Source of the DNA: Minisyncoccota bacterium
GTDB lineage: Bacteria; Patescibacteriota; Minisyncoccia; Phycocordibacterales; UBA9973
DNA length: 64,000 nt
NCBI GenBank assembly: GCA_041674285.1
Contig: JBAYVZ010000005.1
Coordinates: 5,176-69,175, forward strand
Direction of reading: 5' to 3'
Shown here: in pieces, positions 43,584 through 45,251 of the stretch
Layout of the letters: every line of letters begins with the position of its first letter
Numbering within the stretch: the first letter of the stretch is position 1
Notes under the pieces: generated by a model
The model's database searches: none
Seen by the model: the letters and a program-made list of their open reading frames with translations, nothing else
What the model was told of the DNA's origin: nothing
Made by a program: the position numbers and the translations under genes

Positions 43584-43701
43584 CCCGTATGAAATAGGAA
43601 ATGTTTACATTTCCGTATTTAATTATATTATCATTAATAATACCGACTAAGTTTATTTTGTAAAATCCGTATAAATATTATATACACATTTCATACGGGA
43701 T
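43584..43701 (-). repeat. start-codon-abutting structured element (family 1), copy 7
   Basis: Read in minus sense: arms ATCCCGTATGAAAT / ATTTCATACGGGAT (three arm positions differ from the consensus, all compensated). Inner hairpin ATACGGAAATGT-AAA-CATTTCCTAT. Sits between the yidC stop and the jag ATG. Confidence 0.85.
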
Positions 43702-43715
43702 CCATATACGTTTAA

Positions 43716-44459
43716 TTAGAAGTTATTTTCTTTTTTGGCTATTTGGTCTCTTACGTACCATTCCTGACCTATAGTGAATATATTACTCACAATCCAATAT
43801 AATGCAACCCCTGCAGAGAAAGTATAAGCGATAAATGCAACAAACACTGGCAATACGTAGCGAATATTTAACTGCATACTACTTGCCAATTCTTCTTGAA
43901 AAGTCTTTTTGGTATTATCTGATACAACCTCTACGTCTTTGATGGTCTTCTTTGGAGTAGCTAGGTATGCCTGGAAATATTGAGAAACACCTGCCAATAG
44001 AGCTAGGAATATGCTGTGATTCAAAGAAAGATCAAATAATCCCAAGAAATTTGTATTCATGACAACCGGTACATTGATAAAACTATAAATGATACTACTG
44101 TCTATCTTGAAATTGATAAATACATAGTACAGGGCAAATATAACAGGAAGCTGAAGTAAAACAACAAGGCAACCAGAGAATGGGTTTACTCCGTATTTCT
44201 TATACAATTCAAATTGTTTTTTTGCTTGCTCTTCTTTATTTGGATAATCAGTCTTCAATTTCTTGAGTTCTGGCTCAAGCTTTTTCATATAAATCTGACT
44301 CTGTATAGACTTCTTGGCAAGAGGGAAGAGGATGAGTTTTACGAGTATAGTCAAAATAATAATAGCAAAACCAATATCCCCAAAAGTAACCTTATCTATT
44401 AAAAAAACCAGCATATTATATATAGGCTGATAAAAAAATGTATTCCATAGTGCGCTCAT
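43716..44459 (-). CDS. yidC: membrane protein insertase YidC (short Oxa1-like form)
   Basis: 247 aa, five hydrophobic helices, LAKKSIQSQIYMKKLEPELKKLK...NPFSGCLVVLLQLPV. A TGcTACAAT -10 box sits 6 nt before the ATG. Confidence 0.9.
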   Translation of the reverse strand: MSALWNTFFYQPIYNMLVFLIDKVTFGDIGFAIIILTILVKLILFPLAKKSIQSQIYMKKLEPELKKLKTDYPNKEEQAKKQFELYKKYGVNPFSGCLVVLLQLPVIFALYYVFINFKIDSSIIYSFINVPVVMNTNFLGLFDLSLNHSIFLALLAGVSQYFQAYLATPKKTIKDVEVVSDNTKKTFQEELASSMQLNIRYVLPVFVAFIAYTFSAGVALYWIVSNIFTIGQEWYVRDQIAKKENNF

Positions 44460-44492
44460 CCGTCTATTGTAGCATAAAATTTAAGTATTTTT

Positions 44493-44598
44493 AATTCCCC
44501 TCTTGAGGGGTGCCCGATAGGGTGGGGTGGATATATTTTGTATTAAATTCAGTCCACCCCGTCTTTTGAGTACAAAAGCCACCCCTCAAGAGGGGAAT
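44493..44598. repeat. inverted pair of family-3 units (CACCCCTCAAGAGGGGAAT-type)
   Basis: AATTCCCCTCTTGAGGGGTG...GGTGGGGTGGA (44493-44532) faces TCCACCCCGTCTTTTGAGTACAAAAGCCACCCCTCAAGAGGGGAAT (44553-44598). Lies between the yidD stop and the yidC promoter. Confidence 0.8.
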
Positions 44599-44600
44599 AA

Positions 44601-44807
44601 CTACCTCACAGGATCGTAGCTATGTTTTTGCCATGGGTGACATCGGAGCACGCGCCAAACAGACAAATAAAAACCTTTAAAAAATCCATATTTTTCAAAG
44701 GCTTGTTTACTATACTCTGAACAAGTCGGTAGAAATTTACAAGAATAGTGCGATTTTAAAGGAGTTTTTTGATATAAGTTTATTAAAAATATAATTATTT
44801 TAGACAT
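44601..44807 (-). CDS. yidD: membrane protein insertion efficiency factor YidD
   Basis: 68 aa, CKFLPTCSEYSKQAFEKYGFFKGFYLSVWRVLRCHPW. Confidence 0.9.
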   Translation of the reverse strand: MSKIIIFLINLYQKTPLKSHYSCKFLPTCSEYSKQAFEKYGFFKGFYLSVWRVLRCHPWQKHSYDPVR

Positions 44808-44924
44808 CCCATTAGAGATAGGAAATGCTTACATTTCCGTTTCTTTTTAATTTAAATTAATAAATACAACCTTATTTATAAGCAAACCTACATAAAAAAC
44901 ACAAACAACATATCTCTAACGGGA
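44808..44924 (-). repeat. start-codon-abutting structured element (family 1), copy 8
   Basis: Read in minus sense: arms TCCCGTTAGAGAT / ATCTCTAATGGG (G-U wobble). Inner hairpin ACGGAAATG-TAAG-CATTTCCT. The rnpA TAG stop (44916-44918) lies inside the 5' arm. Confidence 0.85.
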
Positions 44925-45251
44925 CAAGTATAATCCTGCTTTTTTAAATAAATAGACAATATTTTCAGATATTTGATCATTTTCAGCTTTTAAAGCCTCC
45001 TTTTTAAAGAAAAGAGCGCCGATAAAAGGCTTTGCCAGTAATGGGCCAGCCATACGATAACCCTTTCTCCTGAGAGAATTCCTTAAAACAGCTGTTTTTG
45101 CAACGCTTTTCGGGGCAACTACAGCAAAATGAACCACACCATCAGTGGAGGGTATATACCGGAAAGTAAAAAGAGGGCTTGAGACCATTTTTCCTTCTTT
45201 CATAATGGCTTCAAAAACCCCCTTATTAACACGATGCTTTTTGGAAAGCAT
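44916..45251 (-). CDS. rnpA: ribonuclease P protein component
   Basis: 111 aa basic protein (FAVVAPKSVAKTAVLRNSLRRKGYR), immediately downstream of rpmH. Confidence 0.85.
   Translation of the reverse strand: MLSKKHRVNKGVFEAIMKEGKMVSSPLFTFRYIPSTDGVVHFAVVAPKSVAKTAVLRNSLRRKGYRMAGPLLAKPFIGALFFKKEALKAENDQISENIVYLFKKAGLYLSR

Follow-up and report, generated by a model that had tools for sequence, protein, structure and literature searches.

What has driven apart the genes of the rpmH-rnpA-yidD-yidC-jag operon, an essential, normally compact and origin-proximal unit, in a Minisyncoccota bacterium (contig JBAYVZ010000005.1)? In the 64-kb stretch of this contig that we analyzed, hereafter the window, two structured spacers separate rnpA from yidD and yidC from jag, and a pair of GC-rich inverted repeats lies between yidD and yidC. 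We find that both spacers belong to one family of elements and that they are best read as recent insertions of a non-autonomous mobile element that resembles MITEs (miniature inverted-repeat transposable elements), a reading to which we assign a probability of about 0.7. The evidence points to a selfish element with a safe-landing design rather than to a device that benefits translation, and three independent recent insertions, the third by the GC-rich pair, would explain the punctuation of the operon.

The genes were identified by Pfam matches. A preliminary description of the locus had given the two spacers as 43584-43701 and 44808-44924, which is right to 1-2 nt (cores, 43584-43699 and 44808-44923), and its 1-nt gap between rpmH and rnpA is seen in the sequence. 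It had also taken tight packing to be the normal state, and this agrees with five relatives whose operons were obtained via Jag homologues plus one genome match. In L118 (Jag 97%, DNA ~90%), rnpA and yidD lie 6 nt apart and yidC and jag 8 nt apart. In L119 (Jag 89%), L120 (81%), and L121 (80%), rnpA overlaps yidD by 8 nt and the yidC-jag gap is 7, 7, and 4 nt, respectively, while in L078 (65%) the two gaps are 1 and 6 nt. Both element sites are empty in all five genomes, which identifies the spacers as true insertions; for example, the L118 sequence reads TAATTAAATTT|ATGGATAAAGAT at jag and TAGTTTTGT|ATGTCTAAAATA at yidD. L078 instead carries a copy in front of dnaA.

The same pattern extends to the rest of the window, which holds eight full copies, six on the plus strand and two on the minus strand (Table 1). 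Copies 1-4 are absent from three relatives compared over the polynucleotide phosphorylase (PNPase) region (L124, L125, and L126; 82-87% protein identity), and copy 6 is absent from L063 (~91% DNA identity), which does have copy 5. Given these empty sites, at least 7 of the 8 copies are specific to this lineage. In the shared copy 5, the ends are conserved between the window and L063 and the core has diverged.

The element is bounded by 13-bp perfect terminal inverted repeats (TIRs), T-CCCGTTAGAGAT ... ATCTCTAACGGG-A, which pair as a helix (P1); the bounding arm pair can also be given as TCCCGTTAGAGAT/ATCTCTAACGGGA. From CCCG to CGGG, the core measures 115-118 nt in the window copies, or 117-120 nt with the terminal T and A. 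Read in the direction of the gene, a copy consists of T-CCCGTTAGAGAT as the 5' arm, ~70 nt of AT-rich sequence, a conserved AC, a subterminal hairpin (P2) with a 7-bp stem and a 4-nt loop, a conserved T, and ATCTCTAAYGGG as the 3' arm, followed by ATG. P1 has 13 bp, with its T opposite the A of the ATG, and gains a 14th pair if this T is preceded by A. In all 8 window copies, the folded element buries the first base of the start codon, usually together with the U, in this 13-14 bp helix. That the spacers are structured, as the preliminary description held, is borne out by the folding of each window copy (z = -3.5 to -5.6 vs dinucleotide shuffles).

The recurrence of the element is not due to chance. 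The 12-mer TCTAAYGGGATG, with no more than 1 mismatch, has 9 matches in the window vs 0.65 +/- 0.8 in shuffles. Core identity among the eight copies (0.66 vs 0.61 +/- 0.04 when shuffled) is near-random. P2 varies in sequence among window copies and keeps its pairing. Three of these copies have variant arms (AGAAGT/ACTTCT, AGAAGC/GCTTCT, and TATGAAAT/ATTTCATA), with all changes compensated. RNAalifold supports only P1 and P2, and a third conserved helix was sought in the core and not found. Covariance models from Rfam 15 gave 0 matches at the gathering score in the window and only chance-level matches at E <= 10 in 43400-45500, and a tRNA/tmRNA scan found none.

To place the family more broadly, an exact-arm pattern including the ATG was searched in species-representative genomes, giving at least 117 stretches, and a scan of metagenome contigs without the ATG requirement gave at least 120 stretches, with 123 elements among the matches listed. 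Copies occur in many lineages of Paceibacteria, Nomura-, Wolfe-, Lloyd-, Yanofsky-, Zambryski-, and Taylorbacteria among them, and the GC content of the hosts of the genome stretches spans ~32% to 54%. In a census that used only five end bases and no further arm complementarity, the inner arm was paired at 7/7 positions in 139/147 copies, and variant arms showed 51 doubly changed Watson-Crick positions vs 17 unpaired single changes. In 80/145 copies, vs 2% of shuffles, P2 forms a perfect hairpin with a stem of 6 bp or more that is separated by 1 nt from the gene-proximal arm, and 44 distinct stems occur. P2 lies beside the distal arm in 14 copies of the genome set (80 gene-proximal vs 14 distal), and the corresponding numbers in the unbiased metagenome set are 37 vs 9.

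The preliminary description placed the element between genes, and the two operon copies do lie there. The rule it missed is more precise: every one of the 8 window copies abuts, to the base, the ATG of an open reading frame (ORF; 68-643 aa), two of these genes being of unknown function. What the element keeps to is thus the start codon and not the intergenic spacer as such. About 15% of the window genes carry a copy, housekeeping genes included. Co-directional genes upstream stop 10-19 nt before the element, with rnpA as the sole gene that stops inside. Beyond the window, 77 of the 123 elements of the unbiased set, among the matches listed, abut an ATG on one side, 1 on both sides, and 45 on none, and elements that end in T..A do so in 78 of 81 cases. 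The ORFs that follow have a median length of 194-224 aa, vs 19 aa for random ATGs.

How these junctions arose can be read from filled and empty sites. At copy 6, the empty site of L063 reads ..attataat ATGGGAATTTT, and the filled site ..attataat ATGGG T[CCCG..115 nt..CGGG] ATGGGAATTTT; in terms of junctions, ..attataatATGGGAATT in L063 corresponds to ..attataatATGGGT[CCCG..CGGG]ATGGGAATT in the window. At copy 3, TAAAAAT|ATGGAC in L124 corresponds to ..CT ATGGAT[..]ATGGAC. The target duplication at copies 6 and 3 is 4 bp (TGGG and TGGA), or 5 nt counting the A, and ATGGA likewise stands on both sides of the jag copy. The direct repeat, counted with its A, measures 5 nt in 83/145 copies of the genome set and in 51/77 of the metagenome set; a 4-nt repeat is seen in 14 and 6 copies, respectively, and a 6-nt repeat in 7 and 2. 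A T precedes the 5' arm in 119/120 and 77/77 copies.

In the simplest description, these filled and empty pairs show that a staggered 4-bp target, usually TNNA, is duplicated on insertion. In the T..A class the event is A|TGNN to A-TGNN-[T...A]-TGNN, with the element entering right after the A of the start codon; its terminal A and the duplicated TGNN therefore rebuild an intact ATG flush with the element. The ORF remains unaltered, and a relic ATGNN-T stays upstream. Roughly a tenth of copies carry GTG, TTG, or CTG at the relic position, and tandem arrangements occur (L101 and L002), the second element occupying an ATG that the first had restored.

In the operon, a copy that landed on the yidD start broke the rnpA/yidD overlap and left rnpA to end at a TAG inside the arm. 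The stop codon is indeed embedded in the 5' arm (44916-44918; arm positions 6-8), as first described. The C-terminal end of rnpA (..YLSR*) and its stop thus derive from the junction and the element arm, and RnpA has 111 aa here vs 106-109 aa in relatives. As the overlap is lost, direct translational coupling of rnpA and yidD is also lost. A second copy landed on the jag start, which is now 132 nt from yidC, and the relic start opens a 4-codon mini-ORF, ATG GAT CCC GTA TGA. Such mini-ORFs are not conserved across copies, and a conserved leader peptide (M-x-P-V-R-D...) translated from the relic ATG was considered and rejected, as the similarity after the arm is at the nucleotide level and 1-nt indels shift the frame.

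The third interruption is the palindromic repeat pair behind yidD, correctly described at the outset as an inverted pair of family-3 units; these are GC-rich. It represents a second kind of insertion, unrelated to the main element; it is absent from all five operon relatives, and in L118-L121 the yidD-yidC spacer is ~36 nt. This pair includes terminator-like hairpins on the operon strand, and behind it yidC keeps a promoter of its own, TGCTACAAT-N6-ATG, a leaderless-type geometry also found in L118-L121. The genes had been called essential and co-transcribed; given this promoter behind terminator-like repeats, a single transcription unit is doubtful, and the stretch is probably not one uninterrupted unit in this genome. 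The operon runs on the minus strand, divergent from dnaA and dnaN on the plus strand.

Is the element then a MITE? Most hallmarks are present: TIRs, target duplication, small size, non-coding sequence, multiple copies that face either way and may be tandem or partial, and presence in one genome but not in close relatives. It is unusual for a MITE in its single-base precision at start codons, the repair of the ATG by a terminal base, and arms that are identical class-wide, and also in a subterminal hairpin conserved in shape and in ends that stay conserved while the core randomises. Several observations weigh against our reading. No cognate autonomous partner was found: no transposase or recombinase domains occur in the window, and no arm pairs the size of an insertion sequence (IS) with a transposase turned up in a search confined to ~1.8 Mb of element-rich loci around copies (838-nt and 2.3-kb arm pairs proved to be tandem elements around a pilin-like gene and ordinary membrane genes). 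Viral contigs, when searched, also contained no copies. The yidD copy lacks a recognisable target duplication, and the flanks of copies 1, 2, and 4 are unexplained by simple insertion. Compensated arms and the in-place conservation of the ends of copy 5 fit a functional RNA and are atypical of a decaying MITE. A -10-like box stands next to P2 in 21/80 copies of the genome set but 3/48 of the metagenome set. Lastly, a 4-bp TNNA preference alone cannot explain why T..A copies are nearly absent off start codons.

This last point bears on how targets are chosen. The window contains 400 ATGRA sites, 18 at gene starts, 342 intragenic, and 34 non-coding. As only half of the window copies have ATG-R-A, a sequence preference combined with the purging of intragenic insertions cannot explain 8/8 or 78/81. 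Either targeting reads more than 4 bases, or only harmless or useful start-codon insertions of the T..A class persist. It is possible, but in our view doubtful, that the T..A class is a true start-codon-homing element directed by more than a 4-bp preference; candidate cues would be the downstream edge of the transcription bubble at leaderless promoters, or recognition of structure or a guide via the P1/P2 fold. Equally tentative is the companion idea that copies are kept as a portable expression module, acting through the hairpin and outward transcription or through processing to a short-leader mRNA. If true, this would add a previously unrecognised layer of gene-start architecture, at about 1 gene in seven of these genomes, to bacteria that translate without Shine-Dalgarno sites.

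A second class of copies sheds light on the target itself. In 37 of the 45 non-ATG elements, among the matches listed, C...G replaces T...A, and the flanks follow x-TNNA-C[..]G-TNNA-y (e.g. GTTGAC, GTTTAC, and GTCAAC). Such copies occur at metagenome loci L128, L132, L134, L207, L209, and L231 and at genome locus L019. Several sit on, and rebuild, the -35 box of TTGACA-N17-TAnnnT promoters. At least one copy, in front of a pilin-like gene at L128, is read through: it provides an ATG in frame and thereby a new leader peptide ending in ..LSLTG before the G|FTLIE (FTLIEL) motif. The two classes share their arms and P2, down to the conserved AC that precedes P2. These sequences suggest that the family as a whole targets a 4-bp TNNA-type site; the T..A class is almost confined to start codons.

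The C..G class is also informative about an explanation that would reverse the order of cause, namely that the element is primarily a functional cis-acting RNA, a portable leader in which P1 gates or couples downstream translation, with mobility secondary. The opener would be a ribosome terminating upstream, a helicase, or cleavage, and the rnpA stop does lie opposite the bases 5-7 nt before the yidD AUG. This geometry is, however, found at rnpA alone, and a start-codon gate makes no sense where the same arms and P2 stand upstream of promoters or inside prepilin leaders. The pairing of the A of the AUG (usually AU) in 8/8 window copies, their strong folds, the compensated arm variants, and the covarying P2 all fit such an RNA, as do ends conserved around a randomised core (in copy 5, and in the core identity of 0.66 vs 0.61) and a length held at 115-118 nt in the window. 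Yet no Rfam match appears even at E <= 10, and arm mismatches (6 G.T vs 5 A.C) give no sign of selection on the sense RNA, although this test is uninformative. The P2 side faces the gene in ~80-85% of copies, but both orientations exist; and while ~15% of window genes carry the element, housekeeping genes included, close relatives lack at least 7 of the 8 window copies and their genes function all the same. We consider a primarily functional RNA unlikely. On the claim that the element is neutral or beneficial for downstream translation, what is supported is its tolerance before housekeeping genes; the benefit finds no support, and the helix buries the A of the start codon.

Far less probable is removal of the element from the RNA, as a mini-intron or processing stem, or its bypass by ribosomes, with expression from the relic upstream ATG. 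Exact excision of the element with one of the duplicated ATGNN flanks would return the mRNA to its original form, the helix draws the two flanking repeats close to each other, and any promoter that is present is spaced 6-7 nt from the relic ATG that follows it (copy 4 and the dnaA copy of L078). However, the downstream ATG is intact and sufficient, the relic ATG is lost or mutated in many copies (GTG, TTG, or CTG; deleted in copies 1 and 8), Rfam yields no ribozyme or intron signature, and the two operon copies separate different genes. Because the sixth upstream base is always T, whatever the second codon of the gene, take-off and landing codons would not match. Programmed bypass of the T4 gene 60 or byp type was rejected on this ground, and also as the elements separate genes or precede the ORF. 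The weakest alternative, that the arms are attC-like or Xer/dif-like recombination sites at the boundaries of gene cassettes, draws on GTTAGAG / CTCTAAC motifs reminiscent of attC R boxes, compensated pairing as in folded attC sites, the 12-6-12 palindrome like lox/dif that abutted ends would give, and a tyrosine recombinase gene near rpsO in relatives, but is largely refuted by a gene order that all relatives keep whether or not the element is present, which means that the element is no cassette boundary, as well as by boxes in the reverse order (GTT... first and ...AAC last on either strand), by targets that are ordinary start codons without arms, with a 4-bp duplication that differs by site, and by the lack of an integrase adjoining any window copy.

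If the spacers are insertions of a mobile element, we may ask how the genes behind them are expressed. Shine-Dalgarno-like motifs precede only 3/54 window genes, and 13/54 have a TAnnnT box at a distance of 6-7 nt ahead of the ATG, including rpmH, dnaA, and yidC (TATATT-AGACATT-ATG, TATAAT-AGGAACT-ATG, and TGCTACAAT-AGACGG-ATG, respectively). This layout suggests widespread leaderless mRNAs in the host, and with so few Shine-Dalgarno sites and so many -10 boxes 6-7 nt from the ATG, initiation would need no specific leader.

In a full-length transcript, P1 would hide the AUG, and P2 would stack on P1 into a helix of ~21 bp. Three routes around this helix can be proposed. The most likely, though short of an even chance, is that transcription starts inside the element, in the AT-rich core or at the P2-side end; such an RNA would lack the 5' arm, leaving the 3' arm and the AUG single-stranded. 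P2 faces the gene in most copies, copy 1 replaced a native promoter, and the jag copy contains TTTACA-16-TATTAT plus TATAAT 7 nt before P2, all in favor of this route. As the -10 box beside P2 was not seen in the metagenome set, it is subfamily-specific, and the lack of a family-wide -10 box counts against this route. A less probable route, proposed by analogy, is that a double-strand RNase cuts the helix in read-through RNA, as for Correia elements (PMC10969869). Ranked a little lower still is melting of the helix by ribosomes that move in from the gene upstream or from the relic ATG, which is attractive for rnpA-yidD, where the stop lies in the helix, and not general.

A search of the literature found no prior description of this element. 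Among known systems, the closest comparison is with the Correia elements (CREE/NEMIS), which have 26-bp TIRs, a TA duplication, and an integration host factor (IHF) site and are known only from one genus. By contrast, the TIRs here are unrelated and 13 bp long, the duplication is 4 bp and of TNNA type, the hairpin is conserved in shape, and the range is a whole class (Paceibacteria) of the candidate phyla radiation. In addition, the T..A class meets start codons with single-base precision and restores the ATG. The likeness lies elsewhere: the Correia elements of Neisseria are also non-coding, ~100-150 bp, and multi-copy, with TIRs and a short duplication, are mostly located immediately upstream of genes and co-transcribed with them, and differ in presence and absence between relatives (PMC10969869). 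RNase III cleaves the hairpins that their TIRs form, outward-facing promoters are part of the elements, and the same 2024 review of MITEs nowhere mentions start codons (PMC10969869). ERIC/IRU, RUP, BOX, and other MITE-like intergenic repeats of bacteria, like the present element, are small palindromic intergenic repeats, transcribed with their neighbours and able to alter mRNA stability (PMC10969869); unlike it, they are not known to keep a fixed start-codon register, and there is no sequence similarity to them and no Rfam match.

Rickettsia palindromic elements (RPEs) and mitochondrial byp elements are mobile palindromes that persist within genes or at gene edges, as their position and sequence leave the protein functional, a property comparable with the read-through C..G copy in a prepilin leader. 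RPEs are, however, translated in frame and byps are skipped, while the operon copies lie outside ORFs and have an intact, separate start codon. The ends of piggyBac are TTAA|CCCTAGAAAGATA with a 4-bp TTAA duplication, and the IS1380 family has CC(T)AGA-type ends with duplications of 4-5 bp. The element has TNNA|(T/C)CCCGTTAGAGAT and a 4-bp duplication, a short likeness that is at most a tentative lead, and no transposase of any type was found near the elements. Other candidates were rejected. Repetitive extragenic palindromes (REPs) and the mosaic elements built from them (BIMEs), linked with REP-associated tyrosine transposases (RAYTs), are GC-rich imperfect palindromes of 20-40 nt with a Y1 transposase; here the element reaches ~117 nt and its core is AT-rich, and the window encodes no Y1 transposase. 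IS200/IS605 derivatives have hairpins at both ends, no TIR, and no duplication, whereas TIRs, a duplication, and one hairpin are found here. Integron attC sites, R''(RYYYAAC)...R'(GTTRRRY), mark cassette 3' ends and go with an integron integrase; here the box order is reversed, the sites are gene 5' ends, and no integrase is nearby.

As such, this appears to be an undescribed, class-wide mobile element of candidate-phyla-radiation bacteria that repairs start codons with its own terminal base. Genomes of ~1 Mb and ~89% coding density tolerate a copy before ~15% of genes, and in a relative even before dnaA. The element is thereby a natural probe of transcription and translation starts in uncultured bacteria that are poor in Shine-Dalgarno sites and prone to leaderless mRNAs. 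Copies shift the ends of neighbouring ORFs, as at the rnpA C-terminus, and break assemblies, and they could serve as strain-level markers.

Table 1. Element copies, operon genes, and other features of the window, in window coordinates.
Feature	Position	Strand	Remarks
Copy 1	1781-1896	+	before NYN-domain gene; replaces native TATAAT-N6-ATG promoter of three relatives
Copy 2	7937-8054	+	before phosphoglucose isomerase-like gene; arms AGAAGT/ACTTCT, compensated
Copy 3	11619-11735	+	before gene of no assigned function downstream of PNPase; flanks ATGGA(T)...ATGGA
Copy 4	23271-23388	+	before uvrD/pcrA; upstream TGTATAAT-N7-ATGTCT mismatches gene start ATGGAT
Copy 5	34704-34821	+	before gene of unknown function; sole copy shared with a relative (L063)
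Copy 6	37118-37232	+	before TraG/VirB4-like ATPase gene; clean empty site in L063
Copy 7, jag start	core 43584-43699; T..A 43583-43700	-	before jag; sense 5' arm 43688-43699 (CCCGTATGAAAT), 3' arm 43584-43595 (ATTTCATACGGG), P2 43597-43614; arms depart from consensus at 3 positions, all compensated
Copy 8, yidD start	core 44808-44923; T..A 44807-44924	-	before yidD; sense 5' arm 44912-44923, 3' arm 44808-44819 (ATCTCTAATGGG, one G.U), P2 44821-44838; left flank ACTTGT recurs at other copies
Partial copy	15594-15660	-	ACTTGT-CCCGTTAGAAAA... (CCCGTTAGAAAATCGACTTACGGG..), without 3' arm; before TrmB-like regulator gene
Duplicated jag start ATGGA	upstream 43701-43705; downstream (real start) 43579-43583	-
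rpmH (Ribosomal_L34)	45253-45393	-	Pfam; TATATT-N7-ATG in front
rnpA (Ribonuclease_P)	44916-45251	-	Pfam; 111 aa
yidD (YidD)	44601-44807	-	Pfam
yidC (60KD_IMP/YidC)	43716-44459	-	Pfam
jag (R3H+KH)	43116-43583	-	Pfam
dnaA (DnaA)	45516-46868	+	Pfam
yidC promoter-like site	44460-44494	-	TTAAAA-17-TACAAT, upstream TG, 6 nt (AGACGG) to ATG; kept in relatives
Family-3 GC-rich inverted pair	44487-44601		palindromic, REP/MITE-like; unrelated to main element
19-mer CACCCCTCAAGAGGGGAAT	44494-44512	-	in family-3 pair
19-mer CACCCCTCAAGAGGGGAAT	44580-44598	+	in family-3 pair
Other family-3 sites	51063-51599; 51068-51193; 51778-51832
~130-nt repeats (GCGCCGGTCGCGCTGTAGAAGCCCCTAAAAAAGATA..)	3313-3450; 4424-4551; 7771-7909
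Copy 1 with preceding rpsO terminator	1741-1896
Segment upstream of copy 4	23212-23270		59 nt; terminator hairpin, TGTATAAT-N7, ATGTCT
Tandem 60-nt repeats	21824-22003		in 999-aa ORF without Pfam match
Secretion-like cluster	35995-43078		adjoins operon

Some copies have further features in their flanks. The ACTTGT prefix is common to the partial copy, the yidD copy, and copies in L005, L011, L039, L061, and L108. Copy 1 follows directly after the rpsO terminator, a region compared with L124 (6249-6298), L125, and L126. A 59-nt segment lies between a DUF5663-like gene and copy 4, and the two genes that flank this copy are only 2 nt apart in L124. No match to the whole segment of terminator, promoter, and ATGTCT upstream of copy 4 was found elsewhere; the ATGTCT flank itself also occurs at copies in L046 and L049. 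Flanks may thus sometimes travel with the element. A contig assembled independently (L123; Logan SRR6484325, 5081 nt) has an identical jag and breaks off within the element, 37 nt ahead of the jag start; the repeats appear to break short-read assemblies.

Other repeats are also present in the window. The 19-mer of the GC-rich pair occurs 5 times vs 0 expected. In total there are five REP-like family-3 units, the yidD-yidC pair being a doublet of the unit, and a single one of the other loci contains the 19-mer. An ORF with a match to DUF559 (Vsr-like endonuclease) over residues 64-163 has two direct units in its 5' end, and one inverted unit lies ~180 nt downstream of this ORF. This may be a DUF559 nuclease gene with its own repeat family, and it is not a RAYT. 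A further family of ~130 nt is represented by a direct copy and an inverted one (126 nt, 90% complementary). They flank sugar-nucleotide and aminotransferase genes, and one is located just upstream of element copy 2; in L126, only 26 nt separate glmS from the phosphoglucose isomerase gene. The 999-aa ORF with three tandem repeats (67-75% identical to the first) probably encodes a repetitive surface protein. Lastly, the cluster that adjoins the operon encodes PrgI-like, TraG/VirB4-like ATPase, and VanY-domain proteins together with large unknown membrane or secreted proteins; it is syntenic in relatives and has the appearance of a type IV secretion-like or pilus-like apparatus.

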